Source: Kipferlia bialata (Eukaryota). Taken from it: DNA of 34,145 nt. Shown here in pieces: positions 207-32,726 of the stretch. Position 1 is the stretch's first letter. Each line of letters opens with the position of its first letter. A program made the translations under genes and the position numbers. Under the pieces are notes generated by a model that made no database searches, was not told where the DNA came from, and saw nothing but the letters and a program-made list of their open reading frames with translations. The stretch covers positions 1 to 34,145 of the forward strand of contig BDIP01000070.1 in NCBI GenBank assembly GCA_003568945.1. The letters run 5' to 3'.

Positions 207-1799
207 GCTGACCTCCCCACATCATGCTCCAGCATGTCTGCCACCAAGGAGGGAGACACAGTGCACCTCACAGGTATTGGTATATCTGTATGTATAAGTG
301 TGCATATATATGCATATATACATATATTCATATGCAATTATGTGGGTATATACACTACTTAACTCAGGTGTTGTAACCTCTGGCGACCGTGTAACTAGGT
401 TCTCTCTCACGAAGGGTGCATGGACGCAGGAGGCCCTGCCTTACAAGGTATTATACATATATATACAAAGTGCACATGGTTTGATGTTAATGTTAATTCA
501 GTATGTTATGTATAATATGAATACTCTTTACGCATATATATATATATATCATATATATATATATATATCATATATGAATACTCTTTACGCATATATATAT
601 ATATATATATCATTATACGCACATATATATATATATCATAATGTATATAATGTATATATATACCCAATATGCCGTTAATGTACTTTTGTCTCTATGGGTA
701 CATTTCCACATACACGGCTGCCGTATACACGGAGTTCTGAGAGATAGAGCGGTGACATATGTATATTAATTATAAGTAGACTTTACTACATTTATTACTA
801 TTAAAATTTCTATATTCTTATGCTCTTGAACCCTTTCTTCTCACCTCTAGGCCCCCCACGTGACCTCTCTCTCTCTCTCCACTGGCACTCAGATACTGGT
901 AGGAAAGCTAGAGAGAGTGGCTGTGCCTAGCCGGGGAAGGAGAGTTCCAGGTATGGACTAAGACTTGTATTCATATTTATGTATACGGGATAATATTATT
1001 ATAGTGAAGGAGAGTTCGCGTTGCTACTGCAGCTCCAGGTATGGACTAAGACTTGTGTTCATATTAACGTATACGTGATATTAGAGTGCTTCTTTTTCAT
1101 CAATGTCCCGAAACGCAACTATCGCTAGTTTTCCATAATATTATTGATACTATTAGTATGGCCCTCGTAGAATCATTCATATTGTATTGTATGAATATGC
1201 TCTGCCTCATTATTGTTGTTGTGAATATGACACACCTCTCCTGATTTACACCATAGCTGCTGCCGCTGACCAGGGAGCTACTGGATTCGGTGCTGCCGCC
1301 GCCGCTACAGGTATATACATCTCTCCCTCTCTTATTAGTTAAACCAAGCTGCTCCCGTCGCTACAATACCACTCTCTGTCTCTGCATCGGACCATCCCTA
1401 TACTCTTTGTCCCAACCTTACTATATACTGCACTGCTCTATTCTATTTGTATACACTATATCAATTTACTGTGATATACTGACAATAGGCTTTGGAGCTG
1501 GCGTGCTCTCTCTCTCTCACACACATATTCTATCTATACATATATTTATTGTCTTCCTCAGCCTCTAACTATAGGCTTTGGAGCTGCCGCTGCCAAGCCC
1601 GGGGCCCCAGGTACGTGGATTGGTGTATATAGATAGAAATAGTATACCGACAGATAGATAGTTCGCGCTATCCCCCTACATTACACGTTGTGTTTACAGC
1701 ATCCCATACCTGATGTACTATCACACACCTTACCAATTAGCTGCCCCCGGTGCAAGAGGATTCGGAGGATTCGGTGCTGCCGGAACAGGTACACCTCAT

Positions 1800-1831
<32 letters not shown>

Positions 1832-1991
1832 GGACCGAGACTCGGTAGCTAAGTAGGACACCTCTGACTCCTGATTAACACTTTAGCTGCTGCCCCTGCC
1901 CCTGCCCCTGCCCCTGCCCCTGCCGGTGCGTTCGGTGGTTTCGGTGCCGCCCCAGCTGCTGCTGCTCCTGCAGGTATCTCTCCCTCTCTCC

Positions 1992-2023
<32 letters not shown>

Positions 2024-2574
2024 TATTATTATTATATACATTCTATCATCTTCTATCATTCATGTTTTGATCATGTTCTTATGGTTGTGTTTTACTCAAT
2101 TAGTGTCCCTCATGTAAAGCTGCTGCTCCTGCGTTTGGAGCTGCCCCAGCTGCCGCTGCTCCAGGTATCATTATCTCTCTCTCTCTCTCTTAAGTGATGT
2201 ATTCTCTCTGACATCAGTAGTTCTATAGTATCTATCATTAACGCTTGACACTATATCCTTCAGTGAGTAATACTATATTGGTTTCGTTCAAGTGCACATT
2301 CCTCATCCATGTCTTCTGTCGTTTCTCTTTTCTCTCACCTCACGGGGGCCCAACCTACCGTTACTGCTGCATGTATCTCAGTGAATCATTACTTCTGTCG
2401 TATGTACTATATCTCTCACTTTCAGCCTGGGGCGCCAAGCCTGCCGCTACTCCTAATGCTGCTCCAGCTACAACAGGTATATTATTCTAGTCTACACATC
2501 CCTCGTATTGTAATATCTTGTGTGTAGTATTACACTGCTTAATCGAAGTTGTACATCGTAACCATAGTTGTATG

Positions 2575-2610
<36 letters not shown>

Positions 2611-5600
2611 ACTGTAATTTTATCCTCACTCTCAGGTTTTGGTGCCGCTGCTGCACCAGCTGCCACAGGTGCATTCCATTACTATATCAATTAGTCAATA
2701 TATACTATACTGGTTTCGTTCGAGAACACGTTTCTTCACCACGTCTTTTGTCTTACTATCTTCTCTTATCTCAGTCAGGGGTGCCAAACCAGCCGCTCCC
2801 GCTGCTCCAGGTATACTTTATACAAGAGCAGTACTAACTGGAGAGCTAGAATAACATTGTAAGCTATTTCACTAGTATATTGAGTCTTCTTCCAATCTGT
2901 TTGAGACTCAGAGCTTTACTACATAATCCTTCCTGAGTTGTTGTAATTACCTATCATTAGTCATATGCAATGATTGGTATATACACAATGATCCTCACCC
3001 TCAGCTTGGGGTGCCGTAGCACCAGCTCCAGCTGCCACAGGTATACTATATCACTATATACATACAACCTCTTTCCAGCTATATACGTCTCCACTATTCT
3101 GCCGCGTTGTTGACGGGATACCATATCATTACGCGATACCACATCATTACGCGATACCATATCATTACCGTATGTGAGTATGTGCGTGTATAAATCTTAC
3201 TCTCAGCTTGGGGTGCCAAACCTGCCGCTCCCGCTGCTCCAGCTACCACCGGTATACTATTATACTCTACACATATATCGTATTGTAATATTTTGCGTCC
3301 GGTTTTTAACCGCTTAGTCGAAGTCGTCCCATAGTTGTATATGTATGCGTGCTCTTATTATCCTCACTCTCAGGTTTTGGTGCCGCTGCCGCAGCACCAG
3401 CTCCAGCTACCTCAGGTACCCTTATTCACTATACACAGCGTCCAGACCAATATAGATTTCCTCGTTTCCGAAGTAACATATTATCACATTAGCATGTGAA
3501 GTGTGTGTTGTTAGAGTATACATACATGATTCTCACTGTTAGCATGGGGCGCCAAGCCTGCCCCTTGGGCTCCCGCTTCTCCTTTCGCCAATACAGGTAA
3601 GCTCTTGACATACCTGCACGTATACTAATGGCTCTCGGTCATTCAATGTCTCAATCACTATCGTTGATTGAGCCAAATGGTATTAGCTTCCGACTATTCT
3701 GAGGACAATTTTTGCAGCCCGCATACTATGATTTGTTGCTCCTGTGCACACTCCCTCAATACCATTACTAGCCAGCTTCTGATATACCGTCGGCTGACTA
3801 TAGATATCAATGAGTCTCTCTTACTCACAAGATGTATATCAGTCTAATCCTAAATCCATACATCCATACTTCCTACTAAGACTGTCTAAGTATACGTATT
3901 TCTTTTACGTTTGACTATGATTCATTGTATGTGAATGACTCTAAGGGTTTGGTGCAGCCATAGCGGCACCTGCACCTGCCTATATTATTGACTGAAGTAT
4001 GTGTATATGGTAGTATACATAGTATACCTCACCATCAGCTTGGGGCGCCAAGCCTGCGGTTGCTGCAGCTCCAGCTACCTCAGGTACACTATATCACTCT
4101 TCACAGCATCCAGACCAATATTCATTTTCCTCCTTTCCGACTTAACGTATTATCATATTTAGCATGAAGTGTATTATATTTGAATATACATGCATGATTC
4201 TCACTGTTAGCATGGGGCGTCAAGCCTGCCGCTTCTCCTAAAGCTGCTCCAGCTACCACAGGTATAGTACTCTACTCGACACATCCTTCTAATTGTAATA
4301 TTGTATGTGCAGTATTCTAGCGCTTAGTCGAAGTCCATATGAAGTATATATCAATGTGTCTCTATTACTCACAATGTGTAAAGCGATCTACTCCTAAATA
4401 CATACATACGCTACCAACTAAGAAAACATACTTCTCTTACTTACGAATGACAATGAATGTGACTGTATTTGACTCCAAGGGTTTGGTGCAGCCATAGCGG
4501 CACCTGCACCATCCTCTACTAAGAAGGACACATACACCGACACCACAGAGGATGCCAGTGAGGCAGAGAGTGACACGCCAGTGGAGGACTCAGGTACCTA
4601 TATCTTCATATACTATATGTACTACACTTCTACTTCCTATGTAGTGTGTCAGTATCAGTATTATCATTATAGTTTCTCATCCCACAGGTGACGAGTCGGG
4701 CAAGGAACCAGCCGCCTTCAACTTCGGAGGTATAAGTCATCAATATGATCTCTATAATCTATCCATATATCCAACATGTACATTGGGCGTGATTCTCTTC
4801 AACTTCACAGGTGCACCTCTCGGATACTTTTACATGTTTGACCTTGATAGTGGGACGTATAAAGGTTGATTCTCTCTCATTTTTACTCAGAATAGGTTTC
4901 AAAGTGACTGGGGAGAGTGTGCTGGTACTACCTGCAGGCAAGAAGGCATGGACACCAACCAGGTAACGTGTGTCTATATGTGTGTCCCCATACAAATAGC
5001 ATCTGTACAAATAGTTATATCCATTCTCTCATTTCAAGGCGCCTCCCTGTCCACGTTGGCCCTGCCTCCTCATGTCTTCTGAACCCATACACGTTCATAG
5101 TGGTAGGTATCCAACGTACATATATATACCAGGCATATATACTCTAACTCCTCCAAACATATATAACGTAGAGACTACCATATTTGAGCACAATTGTATA
5201 TATCACACAATCGGCCATATCCATACTGAATGTATGATTACTTTGATATACACACACATCTATACTATCGACCTCTAGGCACCGACCACACTGTTATGGG
5301 TATATCCACTAAGGAGAGACAGAGAGTGCAGGCAGTCAAGGCAGCAGCGGTGGCAGAGAGAGAGAGAGACGAGCTGCTCTCCCTCTTCAAGGACCTGGCA
5401 CCTTCAGCTGACATCCCCTCTCTCTCCCCTGGGTTGCCATGGATAGCACCGGTCAAGGCAGCTCTATCAGAGGTAAATTGTGAACAAATAGAGATTATCC
5501 TTGCAGTGAGTTAATTTCACATCTCTCAAGAATACTCTGACCCCAAGGTTGCCATTCTCAAGGCGGCTAGTGGTCCCTGCCCTGAGTTTCTGTCCTTCAC

Positions 5601-8549
5601 TCCCTCTGACTCCGTTGCCCTGCAGTCTCTGATAGAGGAGGCAGAGGCATTTGACATGGCATCACTCGAGCCCCACATTGAGAGACTATCCAGGTAGATA
5701 TACATATATACGTACATATACATGCTTGTGTTGATGAGTGACGATGGTGAGGCATTTGACATGGCATCACTCGAGCCCCACATCGAGCGTCTGTCCAGGT
5801 AAAGAGTCTATATGTAGACATACACGTTTGTATATGCATCTATTGGAGTTGGTATACCCACACCTAATGCCCTTTGTGACTAAGTGGCGAAAGAAGCAAT
5901 ATGCTGGTGATGTCAGGTATCTACCCGTGGCAAAGAGGTTCGCCCCTAGGCTAGAGGCCCTCTCGAAGTTCCTAAAGGAGCACCCGGAGAGTGAGGTATA
6001 TCTGACATAGTTAGTATATATATATATATATTTATGTCATTTTGTGCGACTACGAGTGTCCGTGTGTGGCTATGTGGCCATAAGAACCTTAAAAACTGGC
6101 ATGTATCTTGTGATGGTGCTTCCAGTCCACTGACTCTCTCTCCCCCTCTAAAGATGTATGTATATTTCATTTGTGTCTGCATTCATGTCTCTCACATCAC
6201 CTTGTCTCTGGTGACGGTGAGTCTCTCTCTTTCTCTCTCTCTCTCTCCCTATTAATGTATATAGTCTATTATCTATCCTCAGCTTGTCTCTGGTGACTGT
6301 GAGTCTCTACTTCTTACCACTATCTATTTACATATATATTAGTAGTAATTGTATAAACATTCATGTATCTCACTCCAGCTTGTCTCAGGTGACTGTAAGT
6401 CTCTTCTGGAGACACTCACAGACCAGTTCAGTGCATTCAAGGTATGGTGCATTTGCAAAGGACCAATATATGGATAGTTTGTGTTGATGTGGCGCGTACT
6501 GTCTTCATATATGTGATGTACTCACAGGTCAGTTCAGTGCATTCAAGGTATGGTGCAATTATGATAACTATTCATTAGTATATATTTGTCAGAGGTAATT
6601 GTGACATCGTGCAATATACACTATATTAACAATTATATGAATTCTTAGACTTACCCATCAGGCCGACCTTGAGACTGTCACCGGTCTGGACTTTGACCCC
6701 CAAGAATCACTCGAAAAGATGCACTCTGCTGCTAAGCTACTCGACTCAATCAGTAGGTATAGAACTATGCGTATTCTTGTATGTACTATCTATCTATCTA
6801 TCTATTTTCCTATATTTCAGAGGTATGAGAGGACTGTGTGCATACATATATACTCAGATTGTGGTGTGTATAACCATGTACTGATATTTCTGATGTATAC
6901 GTATGTCCATATGGAGAGTTCACTTATGACTTAGGACCCGTGTCATCCCCCTCCCCCAGAACACACTGGCCCTGACCCTGGCCCACCAGAGAATGTACTT
7001 CCAGGTATAGAACACAGTAGTATTCAGGATGTTTACGTGAGAATGACTTCTCGGAGACAACTCCCAGGTATTGTGTGTATCACTATAGAGGACACAGTAA
7101 AACCTTTGCAATATACACACAACTGGTCTCATGCAGTTTTTACTATCAGTTTCACAGTCCGGTACAAGTAGTCTAACTCAGGTCAAGGGATTCAACGGCG
7201 GCGTTGCGACACTGTTCGGAGTGGCTGGACCAGTCATAGACAGCCAGGTATGGCGTACATTTATATACATATATGGTTATACATATATGGGTATGGAGTA
7301 TCACATATGTATATATCTCACACTCAGCCTGACAGTGAGGCATGTGTGTACATGCACATACATTTGTGGATATTTAGTATCATGTATGCATATATATATA
7401 TCATCGCAGCCTGCCATTGAGGTTCCTGAGTAGTATTCTGTCACTCATTCATATATACGTATGTGGTAGTAAAGTCTACAGTACATATATATCTCTCTAA
7501 CCCTCAGCCGGCCATTGCGGCATGCATGCAAGGACTGGAGGGTGTGATGACACCTGACACACAGGAGTGTGACTGGGTAACTGAGCAGGCAGAAAAGGTA
7601 TATAGAATATTTAACTAATTTCATATCCAATTATTCATATTCAGCAGGCAGAGAAGGTATATAGTATACATATCTCTACCTAATATCTACCTATTCCATT
7701 ATACTAGTATATTAGTGTATTTATATAGACTCAGGGTGACTGAGCAGGCAGAGAAGGTGTGTGTACATGTGTTGATACATGATATTGTTCATATATGAAT
7801 AGAGCTCTGCTGGACTCATAAGTTTCCAATGTCTAACCGATGTATGATATTTCTTATGTGTCTAATCCCAGCTCCTGGAGGCCCTTGCCCTTCTGGCACC
7901 CAGGCAGGCTGAGGCCAGGACACTGCTCGCTGAGGTATTCATGGTAGTGATATCATCGCTATAGTACCTTTCTCAATAATATATGTACTATTACCATACA
8001 GCAAAACGCTTAGTGTACTGTAATGCCATACACAGGCATCGGCACACTGTTGGAGTTCACAGTACAATGTGATATCTCCCTCCTAACTCCAGTGCTGTGT
8101 CATCAAGAATGTATCCGAGGATGGGGACATTGAGATCTAGATGCCTATATAATATGTGTATATATAGTGTACAACCCCCTACTAACTCTAGTTCACTGCC
8201 ATCAACACAGTGCCCGAGGATGGCGACATTGAGTATGCAGCATATGAGGTGACACGGGTGGAGACACTGCTCAAGAACCCAAGGTAGAATCATATATTAC
8301 ATTGGTCATATGTCAATCTCTCACCCTTAGACAGTCTGCCGAGGCCCATCTCAGGCCCATCTCTCTGAATCACTGCTTGGAATTCAAGTATCCTTAGCAG
8401 AATAGCATATAGTATAGTGTATATGTACAATGTATCTCACAGACAGGCTGTCCGCCCAGCAGAAGGCCCTTCTGTCTGATGAGCTGTTGGTCAACAGGCA
8501 GGCACTGCTGGACATGGAGAGAAGTCAGGTATACGGATGTGTCTCTATG

Positions 8550-9725: not shown

Positions 9726-10802
9726 CTAGTAGAATGATGGCTTGACCTGGTAGGGCTTCTTGGCACTCTTCTTGGCAGCACCCTGGTGGTGAGAACAAAA
9801 ATGAAATAACTATGCATCTTCTACAAACACATATATGTATAGAGTAGATACCTTCTTCTTGCCCTTCTTGTTCTTGGGCCTGACAAAGTACTGGACAGCA
9901 TATANNNNNNNNNNNNNNNNNNNNNNNNNNNNNNNNNNNNNNNNNNNNNNNNNNNNNNNNNNNNNNNNNNNNNNNNNNNNNNNNNNNNNNNNNNNNNNNN
10001 NNNNNNNATTACATATACATTATTTATAAGACACAAACCTTCTTCTTGCCCTTCTTGTTCTTAGGTCTGACAAAGTACTGGGCGGCATTGTGCTTGGCAT
10101 CGGCAATCTCACTGGAGTTAGACCCTTCTTAGACAATACACATATGTGTGTGGGAATACTATATACATACAGAGATATATGTGTGTGAACATACCCGCTC
10201 TTCCTCATTGTCCACTCTCTGCTCGCTCTCTGTATATTGATCTATCTTTTTGTATATATATCACGAAGCACATCTAGATATTCGGATAATAATTTTGTTA
10301 ACACTAATCATACCCGCTCTTCCTGCGTGTCCACTCCCTGCTCCTGTCATCTGTCAGCAACAGCTCGCCAAACATGTCCTAAGGAGTGAGAAGAACAGTA
10401 AATATGAATATAATTGTACCAATACAATTGTATCAATATACAATAGTGTAAATTGATCAATATACACACCTTGGACTGCTCCTTCTTAGTCTTCCTCTGG
10501 TGGTATCTGTCGGCAGACACCTGGGGGTGAGTAACACTCATGTACTCTAGAGTGAATATATATCAAACACAATGGTGGTAGGATATTGCATATACACCAC
10601 AGTACACTCACGTTGTATGTGCCAAACACTCCCCGCTGTGGGAGGTTCTTCCAGTCAGACTTCTTGTAGTGTCTGGGGTTAAGGTATACATATAGAGAGA
10701 GAGAAAGAGAGAAAGAGAGAGAGAGAGAGGGAGAGAGGGAAGTTCTTCCAGTCAGTCTTCTAGTAGTGCCTGGGGGTAGATACTGAGAGAGATGTGGGGG
10801 GG

Positions 10803-10835
<33 letters not shown>

Positions 10836-12200
10836 TTACCTCGCTGGGTCAATGTATGTCCTCAGGGCCAGCATCTGGAGCTCTCTCTGGGGGTCAGGGG
10901 AGGACACACAGAGATATGTGTATAGAGTACACTGGATAAACTTGATACTCAATACAAGGATGATTCATATATCCCAATCTATATACACAGCTTAGTGTCT
11001 GTCTGGCACACTATCCCCCCCCCCCCTCCCCCTCCCTCCATATATAGAAATGTACTCTCTCTATATACCATCTATCTATATACCTTCGTCTTGTCTGTCT
11101 GATCCAGACTGGGGCACTGACTCCACATGCCTGTCTCTCTCTCTCTATGTATATTATCGCTCTCTCTCGCTCTATGTATATAATTACTAAATATCTCTGA
11201 ATATATACCTTCGTCTTGTCTGTCTGATCCAGACTGGGGCACTGGCTCTACATGCCTCTCTCTCTATCTACATATGTATATATACTCCCTATACATCTAT
11301 GTATATATGTATACATATATACCTTCGTCTTGTCTGTCTGGTCCAGACTGGGGCACTGACTCCACTTGGCTATCCTCTTCTGCCTCTCCTCGGCCTCCCT
11401 AGAGACAGGGGCGGCATTGACATCTAAGGTGAGATATGTACAGTCATATATATATTGAAGGAGAGGGGGAGAGAGAGAGAGAGAGAGTCTCTCCTCTGTC
11501 TCCCTAGAGACAGGGGCGGCATTCACGTCTAGAGGTAAGAGAGGGAGAGATACATAGAGGGGAGAGCGATAGAGAGCGAGAGAGAGGTCTATCCCTCGAG
11601 AGAGGGGAGGCATTGACGTCTAAGGTGAGATGAATTCACACACACATACATATATATATGTGGGTGTATATATGTATATATAGAGAGAGACATGGGCTAC
11701 AATGACATCTAAGGTGAGATGAATAAAGAAAGAAAGAGAGAGAGAGCCACCCATGGAGACAGGAGTCATATTGACATCTGGGTGTCAATAGGGAGAAGAG
11801 AGTTGAAATAGGTATGGCAGAGAGAAGAGACATAAACATCCGGCTGGGGGTTGACATCAAGAAACACATATTGCAGAGAGATGAGAGGAGGGAGGGGGGG
11901 GGGGGTATACATAGGATAGTGCTGAACTATATACTCACATACCTGTGCCCATTGGGAGAGCCTTCTCCAGTGCATATCTGGCCTATAGTATAGAATGGCA
12001 AGAGTAGAGTACAATATAGTGTAGTAGAGTATAGTATACTAATTATAATATATATATATATATATGTACCTGTCCCCATAGGCAATGCCTTCTCCAGCGC
12101 CTGTCTGGCCTCCTCAGACAGTACCCTGGCCTTGGTGGACTCATCTGCCTCCCCCTCACTGTCACTCTCCACATAGTCCTCAGGCTTCACATCGAAGTAG
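9726..12200 (-). CDS. FCF2: Fcf2-domain pre-rRNA processing protein (FCF2/DNTTIP2 family), first exon missing
   Basis: Eight phase-compatible exons: 12200-12070, 11423-11323, 10886-10840, 10672-10612, 10520-10470, 10378-10314, 10111-10039, 9782-9726 (TAG). Spliced product: ...KWSQCPSLDQTDKTKRELQMLALRTYIDPARHYKKSDWKNLPQRGVFGTYNVSADRYHQRKTKKEQSKDMFGELLLTDDRSREWTRRKSGEIADAK...KKGKKK...FY*. This fits the Fcf2 pattern as I recall it: W..P......K.dL..L..R..lDP.RhYKK....lP.....GT......y..R..KKe......ELL. Confidence 0.88.
9905..10007. other. Assembly gap (N run) within an echo-containing intron; further gaps at 20300-20338 and 32628-32639
   Basis: N runs seen directly. All three abut echo copies. 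Confidence 0.98.
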
Positions 12201-12250
12201 CTGGGGTAAGAGGAATATACATAGGATATGTGGATAGAAAGAGTGACTGT

Positions 12251-12295
12251 GGGGAGAGGGAGGGGGGGGGGTGGGGGGGGGGGGGGGGGGGGGGG
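12251..12295. other. Poly-G tract between two divergent, apparently 5'-truncated genes
   Basis: About 45 nt of almost pure G; flanking exons at 12200 (-) and 12355 (+) both begin at splice acceptors in phase 2. Confidence 0.8.
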
Positions 12296-12354: not shown

Positions 12355-15300
12355 GTTCTCCACCGTGCTTGTGCTGCCTAGTGCCAGTGAGGTCTATGAC
12401 GCACAGGCCAAGGTATACATCCGTATCCTTTGAGACATATCATGTTACCTGTATGCTCTCTGAATATTCGGATTTCGCTTACCCCTCAGGACAGACAGGC
12501 CTCTGCCACCAACGAATTGATTTGAATCGTCTTGTACTATAGTATTTTCATTAATGCACTCCTGGATCATGCGTCATGGACTATCTATCTATCAATCTAT
12601 CTATATGTCTAACCATCAGGACAGACAGGCCTCTGCCACCAACACAGCTGAGGGAGGACTGCTCACGCTGCTCAAGGGTATGTGTAGTATTTATAACACG
12701 TAGAGACATACAATGTGTGTGTTTTGTATTTATATACACTTAGGGAGGTCGGCTCACACTGCTCAACGGTACAGGTCATACTCAGAGCATTAGTCTTGGA
12801 TTTTGAATGAACGAACAGTCATATTCTGTAAACTCATAGGGATAATTAGTAACTAATTTCTGACGTCAGACCGTATTGTGCGTGTCTCCACTGTTGTTGC
12901 CCCCCCTAGACGTCTACCCATATCCAACATGTTTGAGATGGAGAGGCACAAGGAGACACCCAGGCAGAAGCTGGAGAAGGCCTTTTCTAAGGTAGACTTG
13001 TATATTGTAAATAGAACATATACTCCAGTATTGCATCACCATCAGAATCTAGAGACTCTATACCATTGATATATGTGTTCATTGTTATATATGTTCTCTC
13101 TCATCTTCAGACTGAGAAGCGCCTTCTGAAGAGGCAGCGTGAGTGCCGGAAGGCACTGAAGAGACTGGGACACGGTGAGTGATTGTATTATGATATATAC
13201 CCACATTACCTGCTAGCACTACAAGGTAACGCGTACTCCGTGTATTTTCCGTTGTTCATATATTCCTAACGTCTTTCTTGCATTATCAATGCCCTCACCC
13301 GTGTTGTATATGGCATATGTGTACACATTATGTATCTCTCACCCTCAGGCAAGGAGGACGACAAGGCCAGGCGCAGTGAGGAGGCAAAGTCAAGGCACAT
13401 TAAGGTATACATATATACATGTATATACTTGAGCCTATGGAATGTTGTACACATTGTGAGGCTAAGACAAGGCACATCAAGGTGTACTTCTCACGTTGAG
13501 ATAATTTCTTATCCTAATATATACATATATATTCCATATAACCTCCAGGCCGAGCTGATGGCCAACCAGCAGCAGTTCGACAAGGACAAGGCAGCACTCA
13601 AGAAGGTACATATAAATACCGCATATGTCGAATTATATATGTATCAGCACATTCATTGTCTAATATCAAATCAACTATCATATATATTACTGTTCGACAA
13701 GAACAAGGTACCAATGAAACAGAATAACAGGGTACTTATTGTGTCTATGGCCGTCAAGAATGATGTGCCCTTTCTATCACAGTATGTCACGTGTATCATA
13801 TGTTTGTGTTGAACCTTACTCTCTACCTTCCCTCTCTATCTTACCCCCAGCCCGAGGTGGACCCTGTTGACAGGGATGCTGGGAATGTACTCGCACTCTA
13901 CAGCACAGCAAAGACAAAGCCTAGGTATGATATATTTATATGTATATATGTTTACATATACGTTAATGTATGTGTACTTGCACTCTACAGCACAGCCAAG
14001 ACAACGCCGAGGTATATATATATACATATATATATGAATTCATATATCAGTGCATATATCAGTGTGATGTTACTCTACAGCACAGCTAAGACAAAACCTA
14101 GGTATGCGTATAGTAGTGTACATTCACTTGCTTAATAGTGATAATGAGTACATATCTGTACTCGCACTCTACAGCACAGCAAAGACAAAGCCTAGGTACA
14201 TCTTTAACGCAGCGGCTTTGTATAATACGTAGTTGGTGTATGCTCTTACTAGATTGCGTCTGTTTGTGGCCAGATCCAATGGTACAAACAATTGTTATGT
14301 GATCATCATTGACTTCTTCAGCAATCCTATTTCTCATTTGTCCTTACTCCCAGGTGTCTGTTTGTGGCCAGGGCCAATGGGACCAAGTGCTTTGCTGCAG
14401 TGACAGACCTGCCAAAGGTACTAATATATGTATTTTCCTATATATATATGAAAGAAGACATCAGACATGGTCGTCTCATGCTTTCACTTTTCCTGATATT
14501 TGTACAACTGTTTACACTATTTGTGTCATGATTATTCTGTATTCAGTGATTTTACAGAGTTTTACACCCACTAACCCTAGCACGAGAGGGATGCCCTTGC
14601 GAAGCACTCCAAGACAGCAGCAGAGGGCAAGACTAACAGGTATATTTATCGATGTATTTTTAACTATATTATACTATAGATATAGTATCATACTATATAT
14701 TGCACTATGGTTATCTCCTATGAGACCCCCATGATGCCATGTGTCACTGTACCTCTTTCTTTTAACTAATAGTAATATACTAATAGTAATATATGTATAA
14801 ATATGTTCAATATATATATATATATATATATGTTAGCCTTACCCCTAGACTTGTCACCTCCTATGAGACCCCCATGATGCCCTATGTCACTGCAACATAT
14901 AATATCATATATATATATATATATATATGTTAAACTCATTCATAGGCTTGTGACCTCCTACGAGACCCCGATGATGCCCTATGTGACCAAGGAGCCCACC
15001 CTTGGCATGGCATCTCCATACAGAGACGTGGTGGTGCAGATCACACCCAGGTAAGAATTCATAACTATATTTAGTATATATATATAATATATATGTAGTT
15101 GTGCCCAAACCCTTGACATGGCATCTCCATACAGAGACGTGGTCGTACAAGTGACACCCAGGTATGTGGTAGTATATATATATATATATACTATAGCACA
15201 TACATATAGTGTACACAGGTGTATATTGATCTCTGCTGGGTGTGTCTAACCCCAGTGGTGTGCATGTGATTGAGGCCAAGCCCCTTGGCAGGGTGGCCAA

Positions 15301-17966
15301 GAAGACACACAAGAAGCATGTCGAGAGAGGTATGTGGTAATATGTATATAAATACCTTTATATATATTGGATACACGAGAATAATTACTGACTCTAGGCA
15401 CCATGACCAGCTACCGTGGTGTGGTCTGTTACACACTGTATATTTTTGTATGTCGTATATACTTATGTGTATACTGACTATAGGCACCATGAACAGTTAC
15501 CGTGGTGTTGTCACCTCTGATACACTATATATATATGTATATAGATAAATATATATATATGTGCAATTTACCTGACTCTAGGTACCATGACCAGCTACCG
15601 TGGTGTGGTCACCTCTGCTGCCACCAGTGACAGTGTCATAGCAACGGTGGAGAGACTACCTAAGGTACTATATATATATAGTCCTAGTATATAGTATATG
15701 TGCTGCCACCAGTGACAGTGTCATAGCTACGGTGGAGAGACTGCCCAAGGTATATTATATATATATATACATATATAGTATATAATATATGCAATGCCAC
15801 CAGTGACAGTGTCATAGCCACAGTGGAGAGACTGTCCAAGGTAAGTATAATGGGAATTATAATAGATCTTCTATTCTATACACAATTATCCTGTAACTCA
15901 GTGTGTTCTAACCCTCAGGAGTTCCTCCCCGTGACTGGCATGGTGGGTGTGCACAGTGCAGTCATAGTCAGGAAGCTGCACAGGTACATTCATACATACT
16001 TTCGCGATACACAGTTCTTACGACGTGTATATTTGAAAACGATATCTTACGCGATACGTGTTCCTCCTCGATGTATATCTGATTCTCTTACCGCTAGGGA
16101 GCGTGTCCCAGAGCCAGAGAGGGAGAAGGAGAGAGAGAGGCGGAGGTCCAAGGCTGACAGCACCCAGTACAGGCTCCACTTCACAAGGACGGTCATCCCA
16201 ATTCCAGAGTGCGTTCTGTATATGAGCATGTTCTTCACTTATACCGGCATTCCGGCACTTTGTATATATGTATGTTTTAGATGATGCATGTACTGAGTCT
16301 CTCTCCTCACCCCCAGTGGTGTTGTCCCCTCCTCTGTGTCACTGACACACCACACACCAGACGTGCACGGGGAAGGTACAATATTGCAAATACAGTTATA
16401 CATAGTCATCCAAATGTCTTCACATTTGTAAGATATATATGTACACGTGTACTGAATTGTGTTCAGTGATAGCAGCAAGCCCAACTTTGTTTGTCATATG
16501 TATTTTCATGGTCTATATGTATATACATATAGATTCATATATACATATGTATGTATGTTTATACATTTACGTATGCTTATCCTCAGGCTCCTCCCTCTGT
16601 GTCCTGCTGTCCACTAAATATTTGCAAACATAATATTCAATATATATATATATATGCATACAATTATGATATATACATATAAGTGTATATAACCTTACAT
16701 CAGGTTCCACTCTGTGTGTCCTGCTGTCCACCAGGAATATGCATACACAGTATTCAATATAATATAATTATATTTCAATATAATATATATATACTCATAT
16801 TTATATGATATATATATATATATATATTGTATTGTCTTATCCTCAGGCTCCACCCTGTGTGTCCTGCTGTCCACCAGGAATGGGTCTGTGCTGGCCTATG
16901 ACCTGTCAGACTCAGACATCAGGCACAGGCACCCATCAGAGTGCGCAGTCACTAGGTATATTGTATTATTATATATGTGTATATATATGTATACATTTGT
17001 GTGTATATGCTTATACAAGGTATATTTACACGTATTCATTGTTGTGCACATGTTATATAGTACTATTCCGTTGGTATTAATTTTGCTCACCCCCAGGGGT
17101 GGTGATGACGAGAGCACCTCCGAGAAACCCGAGACCACCAAGACATCTAGCCGCGCAAAGTCAACGCCCGTCAAGAAGTCAACGCCAGTCAAGACTGAGG
17201 ATGGGGATGTTGTGATGGTCAAGACCGAAGAGGCTGAGGTTGTTGTGGATGTCACTGAGGAGATAGAGGAGGAGAGAGAGAGAGAGGTGCTGTCGGAGGA
17301 GACACTGTTGGAGACTCTCCATGACACTATCAGCTGGAGCTGCAAGATAGGTATGTCTGTCTTGTATTATATATGAATAATCTTCTTCTGACAACCCAGG
17401 TTCTGGCAACTCTGTGCTGAGTGCCTGTACGGTGCCCATGTCCCATGCACAGTACTCGATGGAGGTATATTTTAAATAGTATTTGATATACATATTTATG
17501 TATATATCATATGTATATATAATATATATAAATACATATACTATGTACAGGCACTGTGCCCATGTCCCATGCACAGTACTCAATGGAGGTACATTTAATA
17601 TATATGATATATATATATATGTATATATATCACATGTATAATTAGTATATATATATATACATATACTATGTACAGGCACTGTGCCCATGTCCCATGCACA
17701 GTACTCGATGGAGGTACATGATATAGTAGTAATGAGTCTATGCATGAAGTATATTATGAACAGGTATTGTATGCAAATGACACACTCAGTATTCATTGCA
17801 AGTACCCGCAGTGTGTTTGTATATATAGATAAAGTGGGGTATGTTGGTTTGTGTTTCTGATATCAGGAGGCCGAGAGACTGGCCAAGACACAGGCACAGA
17901 CAGAGGGAGAGGAGGGCAAGACGGCAGAGGTATACATGATATGTACATATATACATGCATTGATTG

Positions 17967-18009
<43 letters not shown>

Positions 18010-21000
18010 CTGGCCAAGGCACAGGCTGAGGGAGAGGAGGGCAAGAAGGCAGAGGTATGAGTGCAGTACCAGCATTTGAACATATATATCTTTTGCACCA
18101 ATACCAGCCCGAGCCCCTGTTTGGGGTGTACAGTGCCACCCTGCACTACTCTAGTTCACTGTATATATAGAAACTCTATTATTGCATATATATATATATA
18201 TATAAGTATGTTCTAATGTATCAGCCCGAGCCCCTGTTTGGGGTGTACAGTGCCACCCTGCACTGCTTCCCACCAGCACTCACAGCACCCGACCTGGAGA
18301 TGAACAGGTGTGTATGTGTGTGTGTAGTAATGTATAGAGAAATGTATATATATACACATGTGATATAGATCTGAGTGCATATATGTGTATTATCGAGTAT
18401 TCATTCACTCACTATCAGGCTACACTCCATCTACATGCCAGTGGCCCTGACTTCTGGCGAGCAGATGCTGTACAGACTCAACCTGACAAGGGGGGAGAGA
18501 GCGGGAGAGGGAGAGGGAGAGGCCTGTCTCACCCTGAGGAGGGTGTCCAACATACCATCCCCAGTCACACTGAGGTATGTAGTGATATATGTATATATTC
18601 ATTATTCCACAGAGGTACCATTGGTACATTTCTATATAGATGTATCTCACACATCTCACACATTTTTCACAAACACTCTGGTATCCCATGCGCGATACCT
18701 TCATGTACTGAATATACCACTACATGTAGTTGTGTGAATGTCTATACTAACCCCAGACCCACCCGGCCTGTCCTCGATATGTATGACATTATAGTACCAT
18801 TGCGACTATATAGTATATGATATATATATATAGCACTCATTGTATAAATTCATTCTACTAACCCCAGACCCACCCGCCCTGTCATTGATTTGTATGGTAA
18901 TAGTGTCTAAATATCAGTATCGAGTATACTTCCACATGGATACTGACCCCCCAGACCCACCCGCCCTGTCATTGATCTCTATGGCCTTGAGATTGTCAGC
19001 AGGAAGGGGGAGGGCAAGATGGCAGGTACGACTTGTACGATATTGGTATATATTATTATATGACTTGTACGATATTAGTAGATTTTTATATATTATTATT
19101 ACATTATTATTGTATACAAGGTGGAGGACACTACAATAATGTCTCTACGTGAATATGATTATTTTGTGAGCAGGAAGGGGGAGGGCAAGACTACAGGTAT
19201 GCAGTGTATATTGAGGTTGGATGACACTGTACATTCGTCTTATTCCAGACCGCTCCATCACCGACCGTGTTGGCATGTGTGTCTGGTCCACCCACCCATC
19301 CTATGCTGGGCCCATACAGCCCAGAGAGGCCAAGCCTGTGCACATACCTGTGCCTGGACAGATGGTGAGTGCATATATTCACGTATAGTTTGTATATGGT
19401 ACTATGTGCCAGGACAGGTGGTGTGTATGGTATATTTACTTGGAACGATGACTCATCTCTCTTTCTCTCTCTCTCTCTCTCTGATCCCAGGTTGTGGAGG
19501 AGGACCTCCTCCCACCTTCGGAGGTCTCTCCCTCTCTCTATCTATATATATATGTATATCTGTATTAATATATATATGTATATCCCTTAACCCAGGTTGT
19601 TGAGGAGGACCTCCCCCCTGCCCAGGCCTTTGACTTCTCCGGAGGATACCTTTGTATTGGAAAGGCATTTGCAGCAATCATGCCCAAGGTGGGGACATTA
19701 ATTAATATTATATATATATATATATTACATTGGATTTATATAATATATACAGTGAATAAGCATCCGAGGCCTCAATCATACCCAATTTGGGGAAATTCCA
19801 GGAATAGAAGTATATTTTTCATTTGTAATTTGCAGCAATGTACTATTACTATCAGTGGTATCTATTGTATAGAGCCACACCTCCTCTGCCGAGGCTGAAC
19901 CAACTGAGCACCCCCTACTGTATACACACATATACTAGTTTAATACACAGTATACTATATAATATACATATTCTTATATGTAGGGCCACACCTCCTCTGC
20001 CGAGGCTGACCCCACTGAGCACCCCCTAGCCTATATTTTTTACTAGTATATACAGTATTATAGTATATTATAGTAAATAGATATATATATTCTCATGTCC
20101 TAGGGCCACACCTCCTCTGCCGAGGCCGACCCCACTGAGCACCCATTACTATATATATACCAGTGTAGTCTATACAGTATATGTACTGTATATATATATA
20201 CTACATATTCTTATATGTAGGGCCACACCTCCTCTGCCGAGGCCGACCCCACTGAGCACCCATCACTATATATATACCAGTGTAGTCTATACAGTATACN
20301 NNNNNNNNNNNNNNNNNNNNNNNNNNNNNNNNNNNNNNAGTCTATACAGTATACTATATATATATATATTCTTATATGTAGGGACATACCTCCTCTGCCG
20401 AGGCTGACCCCACTGAGCACCCATTGCTATATATATACCAGTGTAGTCTATACAGTATATGTACTATATGTATATATATACTCATTAATAGGGTCACACC
20501 TCCTCTGCCGAGGCTGACCCCACTGAGCACCCATTACTATACACACACATATGCTAGTATAGTATATACTAGTATACTATATATATATACATATTCCTCA
20601 TACCTAGGGACATACCTCCTCTGCCGAGGCCGACCCCACTGAGCACCCCCTGTTGAAGAAGGCAATCCCAGGGTCACTGTTCCTACTCTCCAGTGCTGCC
20701 GCAGGTCTATATGTACATTATAGTAATGGTATACATATATTAATAGAGAGTGACAGAGAGAGATAGTAAGAGAGAGATAGTACCAGGGTCAATGTTCCTT
20801 CTATCCAGTGCTGCAGCAGGTACTGTAAATGTATAATATGTAATAATTGATGACAATAGTCAGTATTCATTTCGACCAACCCCAGGCGACATTGCTCCAG
20901 CTAGGGGCGCGAAGACAGGTAATTCATTGTCAACTCATGTATACATAACTACCAGTGTACTAATGCAACGTGTTCAATACTACTATTTCTATTAATTCAT

Positions 21001-31684: not shown

Positions 31685-32679
31685 CCATCTTTGCTGACAC
31701 CCAGGGCGAAAAGGCTGTCAAGGACTGTGAGGGCAGTATCGGGTCTGTAGAGGACTGGTGCCAGGTATGTATGGGACCATATACACGCTGCTCTCTCTGC
31801 CTATCCCCCATATTTCTCTTTACTCAGCACTCACATACCTGTAATCCATACCCATTTATATATATACTACATACATTCCTCGCATGCAGTTTGCTATGAC
31901 GTAATTCTCCCCTCAGGTCCATATCGCCTCGATACCTCGGAATTTTGGGGGCACTAAGGTTGTAGATGGCAAGGCCGGCCAGTATCAGAAGGCCCTCAAG
32001 ATGTGGACAGGTATCTGGTATATACGGTACCATGCTATTATTCAGTAAACTTGTCCAGGGGTGTATGTTTGGTTACTGTTTCGTTCTCTGTGTTTAGATG
32101 CAGAGTCAAGTTACAGTTCATTGAATGAACATTTCTAGTATGTCGGTACCAGTGTTTCACTCTCCCTGACCCAAGAATGTCTAGAGGAGGCCGACAGCGC
32201 TCAAGAGGCTGTTCACCCCAGAGATGACATCAGTACAGCACGGTAAGTAGTGATATGTGACAGTAATCAGAGTCAATAGTATATGTAGAGCACATATACA
32301 TGGTATATGGGCACCCACTCACCACAGGGTGTGTCGTCTCCAGGAGTACTGTACCAAGAAGATGGCTGAGTGTAAGGCTGCCCAGAGGGCACTAGAGGAC
32401 GGCACTGACCCCACCTGCAAGATACGTACACCCACAGTGCTCGCTGGGGGGTCCAGTCTACTGCGCCCACCTGCCACAGGTATTACCCATATATACCTGT
32501 CACATGCATTATATATATATATATATATACATATACACATATATATTTATATACATATATATACACACATATATATATACACAGCACCCTGTTACAGGTA
32601 TTACTCATATATACCTGTCACAGACACNNNNNNNNNNNNCACCCTGTTACAGGTATTACTCATATATACCTGTCACAGA

Positions 32680-32726
<47 letters not shown>

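Follow-up and report, generated by a model that had tools for sequence, protein, structure and literature searches.

We analysed a stretch of 34,145 nucleotides (nt) from Kipferlia bialata (assembly GCA_003568945.1, contig BDIP01000070.1, positions 1 to 34,145 of the forward strand; hereafter the window), in which short copies of exon ends, each carrying a splice site, lie in the introns next to the exons that they match. We call these copies echoes, and we call live the exon end that is contiguous with an exon body. An earlier sequence-only reading of the window had pointed to two such arrays, one of them at the end of the plus-strand exon 15582-15664.

Copies flanking exon 15582-15664

Exon 15582-15664 is 83 nt long, lies in phase 2, and is defined both by an RNA-derived contig and by the exon chain of our gene model. 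Its translation in the frame of that chain, which agrees with the frame of the sequence-only reading, is ...SDSVIATVERLPK, and it terminates with GCA ACG GTG GAG AGA CTA CCT AAG, where AAG occupies 15662-15664 and the donor gt starts at 15665. The last 49 nt of the live exon (15616-15664) form the first unit of a donor array, in which exon end, donor and a TA-rich spacer are present two more times, head-to-tail, with exon-end copies closing at 15749 and 15840. Tandem Repeats Finder (TRF) reports this array at 15616-15843 (period 91, 2.6 copies, 86% matches), and its unit lengths are 85 and 91 nt, neither of which is a multiple of 3. Donor echo 1 (15701-15751, plus strand; exon-end copy 15701-15749 plus gt) differs from the exon at three sites, all at codon position 3, and donor echo 2 (15795-15842, plus strand; exon-end copy 15795-15840 plus gt) at five, four of them at position 3 and one at position 1. 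In the order exon/copy 1/copy 2, the variable third positions read A/T/C at 15643, G/G/A at 15646, A/G/G at 15658 and T/C/C at 15661; the fifth site, 15659 (C/C/T), changes CCT (Pro) to TCC (Ser) in copy 2. The three versions of the exon end quoted in the sequence-only reading, told apart by the Ala codons GCA, GCT and GCC, match the letters at these positions exactly, and its statement that they differ silently holds at four of the five variable sites but not at 15659.

Both donor echoes lie within the plus-strand intron 15665-15918 (donor gt at 15665, acceptor ag at 15917-15918), which is delimited by a jump in the RNA contig. The next exon, 15919-15983 (plus strand), is placed by the loose end of that contig and by the exon chain. 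A mirror array stands upstream of exon 15582-15664, where intron end, ag and exon start are present in two extra copies within the plus-strand intron 15330-15581 (TRF array 15386-15617). The far acceptor echo (15388-15426, plus strand) combines the end of the intron and its ag with 29 nt from the exon start and is identical to 15572-15610 at 38 of 39 positions; the near one (15474-15519, plus strand) combines the same elements with 36 nt from the exon start and is identical to 15572-15617 at 42 of 46. Projected onto the exon, the upstream echoes reach 15617 and the downstream echoes begin at 15616.

A contig of 6529 nt, from a public sequencing run of the same sample, matches 15580-15665 with no differences, and what flanks this match in the contig is not adjacent to it in the DNA: the left flank is the end of the exon at about 15329, and the right flank reads AGTTCCTCCCCGTG..., corresponding to the window from 15920 onward, in the exon that starts at 15919. 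Since it continues on both sides into non-adjacent exon ends, the contig represents spliced RNA. It joins 15329 to 15582 and 15664 to 15919, passing over the whole of intron 15330-15581 and skipping the two acceptor and two donor echoes of exon 15582-15664. At this exon, the acceptor and the donor in use are thus those contiguous with the exon body, and the echoes leave with the introns; the comparison covered 15566-15744, that is one contig and one exon, and rare use of an echo donor is compatible with it. Scored with our own matrix, the donors of echoes 1 and 2 reach 12.1 and 9.9 bits, and the used donor only 8.2 bits. Over the whole window, the median donor score is 9.7 bits for echoes (n=29) against 9.8 for live sites, and the median acceptor score 8.4 bits (n=26) against 9.0.

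Junction copies in the window

Exons were modelled over this single 34-kb window with a dynamic-program exon chain of our own, to which three fixes were made by hand. The model comprises 99 exons on the plus strand, with a median length of 70 nt and a GC content of 58.5%, and introns that are TA-rich, with 36.5% GC. A version of the chain with a low penalty, which took up echoes as micro-exons by means of contrived pairs, was rejected. Every exon, together with 25 nt of flank, was then compared with its own two introns. Before filtering, direct copies were present in 46 of 197 own flanking introns, as opposed to none of 197 for inverted copies and three of 594 unrelated introns, and are therefore far beyond chance.

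The resulting census, from which two further copies adjoining an N gap were left out, contains 59 echoes at 39 of the 198 junctions (17 acceptor and 22 donor families), distributed on 30 of the 99 exons. All are in direct orientation, copies of donor junctions sitting downstream of the exon and copies of acceptor junctions upstream. The junction itself is spanned in 54 of the 59 echo alignments, and AG or GT is intact in 52 of 55 echoes, where 43-49 would be expected. With few exceptions, an echo carries 15-57 nt of one exon end with one splice site, and neighbouring copies are 75-147 nt apart, also with few exceptions (median 108). TRF arrays with periods of 87-125 occur at many junctions of the window, and a self-comparison reveals local direct repeats throughout. 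The median intron length is 147 nt without echoes (n=61) and 268 nt with them (n=34), with a slope of about 97 nt per echo.

Nine exons have echoes on both sides (those starting at 6379, 7508, 12620, 14946, 15582, 18955, 20608, 22747 and 25160), and in all nine the parts copied upstream and downstream do not overlap; they often abut in the middle of the exon, with gaps of -2 to 50 nt. A donor echo of exon 17867-17929, at 18004-18058, has a 6-nt in-frame deletion relative to the exon, the sole gap in the exon-derived parts of the echoes.

The second array of the sequence-only reading belongs to the predicted live exon 13851-13924 (plus strand, from the exon chain), whose last 39 nt are unit 1. 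Its three donor echoes, all on the plus strand, lie at 13973-14013 (four differences, three at position 3 and one at position 2), 14072-14103 (two differences, both at position 3) and 14157-14198, the last and farthest being identical to the exon end over 42 of 42 positions. The copies end at 14011, 14101 and 14195, and from the exon to the farthest copy the Ala codon reads GCA/GCC/GCT/GCA. The pattern claimed for 13885-14195 is accordingly there as far as the array and the codons GCA, GCC and GCT are concerned; one of the changes (AAG to ACG) is nevertheless not silent. Within these echoes, each of the 21-nt stretches 13991-14011, 14081-14101 and 14175-14195 is bounded by ctctacag before it and gt after it, and inclusion of such a stretch would, judging by its letters, add an in-frame STAKTKP-like repeat.

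The largest acceptor array (19870-20651, plus strand) comprises seven units, each made up of ag and roughly 40 nt from the start of the exon. Only the last unit continues as an exon (20608-20704), and the array contains an N gap at 20300-20338. The variable core sites of the seven copies (GGA/GGC/GGT, CAT/CAC, GCC/GCT, GAC/GAA and CCC/CCA) are all at codon position 3, and two of the variable sites occur in all four combinations among the copies, as judged by eye and with some copies adjoining the N gap. In two further cases, identity of a copy with the exon is confined to the junction segment, and the spacers on both sides are unrelated (18105-18147 and 18222-18264, 43 of 43; 12486-12513 and 12616-12643). 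Such junction-only identity looks like the outcome of recent gene conversion or of the insertion of a junction segment, and not of a fresh simple tandem duplication.

Codon-position bias and the origin of the copies

Differences between exons and their echoes are concentrated at third codon positions, where they are about three times as frequent as at positions 1 and 2. Mismatches amount to 47/653, 28/656 and 123/648 at codon positions 1, 2 and 3, respectively, and to 73/529 in the aligned intron parts. With one count per variable site and family, unique changes number 41/437, 27/439 and 101/434 (binomial p 1e-12), and they remain at 40, 26 and 91 (p 1e-10) without the two arrays of the sequence-only reading. 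Echoes also differ from each other mainly at third positions (19/305, 17/306 and 57/300; p 2e-8), so that the synonymous excess between echoes on which the sequence-only reading had made its inference depend is present when the families are pooled. Among six sites with three states, five are at codon position 3. CpG content or base composition was considered as a cause of the bias and rejected: the excess at position 3 extends to each of the four bases, and transversions are numerous among the changes. The silent excess is therefore real.

The alternative that best withstands these data, which we nevertheless regard as somewhat unlikely, is that echoes are inert fossils, dead snapshots of an exon end that have decayed freely ever since, the bias then reflecting the constrained live exon together with noise, model error or uneven mutation. 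If echoes are inert, changes at positions 1 and 2 should be limited to the echo branch and those at position 3 should occur on both branches, from which it follows that the ratio of the rate at positions 1 and 2 to that at position 3 cannot go below about 0.5 and rises as echo branches are added. The observed ratio is 0.33 (confidence interval, CI, 0.24-0.44; P(>=0.5)=0.003 by bootstrap over families), and 0.30 in the two better-modelled genes. It is 0.40 in families with a single echo and reaches its minimum, 0.27, in families with several, where the fossil model predicts the maximum; between echoes it is 0.31, and the model predicts at least 0.59. Nor would free decay account for the retention of AG or GT in more echoes than expected, or for third positions that have not drifted towards the AT-rich make-up of introns: they remain GC-rich, with 46 sites where the exon has GC and the echo AT and 36 of the reverse kind. 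Gaps are distributed as one in the exon-derived parts of echoes (6 nt, in frame) versus 15 in the intron parts. As the ratio falls under the floor of 0.5, most of the divergence of echoes likely arose under coding selection, at a time when the sequences that are now unspliced copies were working coding sequence and not debris in decay.

Several observations do fit free decay. Changes private to the live copy are strongly biased (3, 0 and 12 at positions 1, 2 and 3), and those private to one echo more weakly (12, 8 and 24). The echoes also hold two stop codons and several amino-acid changes. Position 1 differs at 7.2% of sites, about half the value of the intron parts (13.8%), and exon 11323-11423 of the minus strand shows 3, 10 and 9 differences at the three codon positions and a TGG-to-TAG stop in an echo.

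In the reading that we favour, to which we give about an even chance, the arrays are junction-spanning tandem duplications whose units were likely subject to exchange with functional exon ends or to capture from them. Throughout the window, such duplications, each of about 100 nt, accumulate in the intron next to the junction. They would originate as small tandem duplications, probably when staggered breaks are filled in or when slippage occurs near the TA-rich ends of introns, and would be tolerated because the choice of splice site depends on position. As the silent-site bias is too strong for inert relics, units have likely been exchanged with functional exon ends, or captured from those of other alleles or earlier states, through unequal crossing-over or gene conversion; since no echo is readable in frame at its own location, this would be the likely route by which it came under coding selection. 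In favour of exchange are the copies that match the exon over the junction segment only, the identity of the farthest copy in the 13886 array, the lack of a gradient with distance, the sites with three states and the four combinations of two sites at 19870-20650. More tentatively, and short of an even chance, one may suppose that the intronic junction copies time-share the coding role: unequal exchange with the live exon end, going on continually within and between alleles, would expose every unit to selection at the protein level. The arrays would then be comparable to a small gene family whose members are exon ends, would keep silent variants in store and would drive intron growth genome-wide.

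Along with the first-position rate and the minus-strand exon mentioned above, the following points weigh against exchange with or capture from functional exon ends. Gene conversion alone produces no codon-position bias, and the model requires either extreme diversity among alleles or a population of very large size. The excess beyond the floor of 0.5 is moderate (P 0.003, or 0.009 without the two arrays of the sequence-only reading), and it depends on the neutral yardstick: compared with the intron parts (13.8%), position 3 (19%) is high. Eight of the 39 families show more changes at positions 1 and 2 than at position 3, and two in-frame stops in 613 echo codons are not significantly few. A strict four-gamete test gave no violations, with only two usable site pairs. 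Furthermore, exons and frames come from our own simple chain program, with RNA support for one exon only, and all comparisons were made within one haplotype of one strain.

The sequence-only reading had proposed that successive exon ends were each functional at some time, so that introns keep a layered record of exon turnover. Taken literally, this means that each downstream copy was formerly the exon end in use in this lineage, and that the retired ends are ordered by age. The silent excess between echoes and their intact and strong splice sites speak for such turnover, and the bias does fit differences that arose in working coding sequence. The geometry of the array argues against use of the copies in place: no copy other than the one joined to the exon body can be read in frame, the units measure 85 and 91 nt, and their inner edges lack splice sites. 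Moreover, divergence does not rise steadily with distance from the live exon, as the layered record would have it. Of the 14 families with at least two echoes, nine have the smaller divergence in the nearest copy and five in the farthest, and in the arrays at 13886 and 17400 the farthest copies match the exon without a difference. Acceptor echoes, though located upstream, display the same pattern. We find exon turnover in this form improbable.

It is very unlikely that the arrays are an assembly artefact, in which the assembler or a gap closer would have placed allelic or paralogous versions of a junction one after another. The window does include three N gaps, the spacing of about 100 nt is near short-read length, and two repeats adjoin gaps: 32585-32627 and 32640-32682 are identical (43 of 43) and abut a 12-N gap on both sides, and 9850-9901 and 10037-10088 (92%) flank a 103-N gap. 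However, the focal arrays are free of gaps, and an echo begins in mid-exon after a TA-rich spacer, a join that exists in no allele of the gene. Of 500 31-letter words sampled from 13000-18000, a fraction of 0.99 was found in the contigs of a DNA run assembled on its own, where false joins at the approximately 16 unit junctions of this region would have taken out about a tenth of the words. The unit junctions are therefore in the reads, and the argument of the sequence-only reading that three states at one site exceed a diploid mix-up becomes unnecessary. As for the two gap-flanking repeats, 32585-32682 is most likely a gap-closing artefact, and the pair at 9850-10088 may represent an artefact, overlapping alleles or a genuine echo; both were left out.

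Translation of the echoes as pieces of alternative or cassette exons, kept by direct selection on the protein, is just as improbable: the echoes of the 13886 array do contain in-frame 21-nt stretches delimited by an acceptor-like ctctacag and by AG before gt, which makes STAKTKP-like repeats possible, but the sole RNA contig passes over the four echoes on the two sides of exon 15582-15664, candidate cassettes in the focal array would be 37, 31 or 23 nt long and out of frame, echoes lack the second splice site of an exon, and the low-penalty chain took them in only as contrived pairs. A cassette exon was rejected as the general cause, since it would preserve the reading frame in the 13886 array alone and disrupt it in the focal one.

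Relation to known systems and other features of the window

The closest parallel that we found is a 37-bp minisatellite in intron 7 (IVS7) of human F7, whose first unit spans the border between exon 7 and intron 7 (Borensztajn et al. 2006; PMC1557585), and whose downstream pseudo-donors are functional in principle but silent, the most upstream site being chosen. Likewise, the focal tandem repeat starts inside the exon (unit 1 at 15616), its pseudo-donors are as good as the true donor, and the first donor is the one used in RNA (one contig, one exon). Unlike this single locus, the present arrays involve 39 of 198 junctions in 34 kb, acceptors as well as donors, and their units of about 100 nt have fast-changing TA-rich spacers and copies that are 5-20% diverged with a codon-position bias. 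A variable-number tandem repeat of the F7 type is defined by variation in copy number between individuals, whereas the arrays described here are known from one haplotype.

Tandem duplication of whole exons yields alternative or mutually exclusive exons. It shares with the echoes the local duplication of coding sequence together with a splice signal, and a coding-like conservation; echoes, by contrast, are partial exons with one splice site, the focal units are not multiples of 3 and, where mutually exclusive exons would alternate in the message, the RNA contig contains none of the four echoes next to exon 15582-15664. When a functional gene and its dead duplicate undergo gene conversion, the copies stay alike, and the evolution of the dead copy can become tied to selection on the live one. 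In our case, however, the partners would be junction fragments of 30-50 nt lying 100 nt apart in one transcription unit, and the exchange between them is a proposal of ours. False duplications made by assemblers differ from the focal arrays in standing beside N gaps, with joins that the reads lack, a feature seen only at 32585-32682 and perhaps at 9850-10088.

Introns can also arise from tandem duplications, as reportedly happened in potato RdRp through duplication of an exon segment holding AGGT. The echoes resemble such events in being small tandem duplications with splice signals that are spliced out and leave the message unchanged. In the AGGT model, duplicated exon sequence becomes a new intron, with the GT of copy 1 as its donor and the AG of copy 2 as its acceptor, whereas here pre-existing introns are enlarged and no new intron position is created; intron 15665-15918, for instance, ends in unique sequence with a normal acceptor. 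Drosophila cases of intron gain by tandem duplication are described in a further study (PMC2891723). For complex introns of Lipomyces, the fill-in of staggered double-strand breaks has been proposed as the origin of donor duplications (PMC7138796). It offers a plausible mutational source of direct, adjacent duplications containing a donor, although those described for Lipomyces measure 4-7 nt, as compared with 75-147 nt here. In the literature outside subscription journals, we found no account of gene-wide junction echoes or of coding-like divergence in unspliced exon fragments.

Introns of the window thus grow in steps of about 100 nt by duplicating their own borders, at about one fifth of the junctions, and the expansion can be counted directly. 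The arrays are at the same time a natural experiment in splice-site choice, with dozens of equally strong decoy donors and acceptors 100 nt away from the site adjacent to the exon body, which is the one used (RNA from one exon), and with unspliced copies that bear a signature of protein-coding selection. If this were true genome-wide, either exchange between exons and decoys would have to be frequent enough to expose the decoys to selection, or an extreme allelic diversity would have been captured into the arrays.

With regard to the products of these genes, an 84-amino-acid exon gave no homologue among longer proteins, 14 single-exon translations gave no Pfam match above the cut-off, and two metagenome scans gave no match. 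At 1257-4261 on the plus strand is a series of some 15 mini-exons, which are 33-87 nt long, share phase 2 and are separated by introns of about 150-450 nt; each encodes one FG/WG-type repeat (FGAAAA..., WGAKPAAPAAPATT). Whole exon-plus-intron units appear to have been duplicated in this gene and, going by the predicted exons, would be retained in the message. To judge by the motif, the gene may encode an FG-repeat nucleoporin. A minus-strand gene (9747-12200) lies between two plus-strand genes, and its arrays, a donor array at 11070-11365 (period 125) and an acceptor array at 11384-11724, follow its own strand. The second plus-strand gene has, just ahead of its first exon, a run of about 40 G with few A or T (12249-12295). 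G is the first exon base after AG in 55 of the 99 predicted exons. Finally, TAAC stands 6-9 nt before the 3' splice site at 14 acceptors, and it is present in 16 of 99 windows covering the last 20 nt of introns, as compared with 4.6% of random intron windows.

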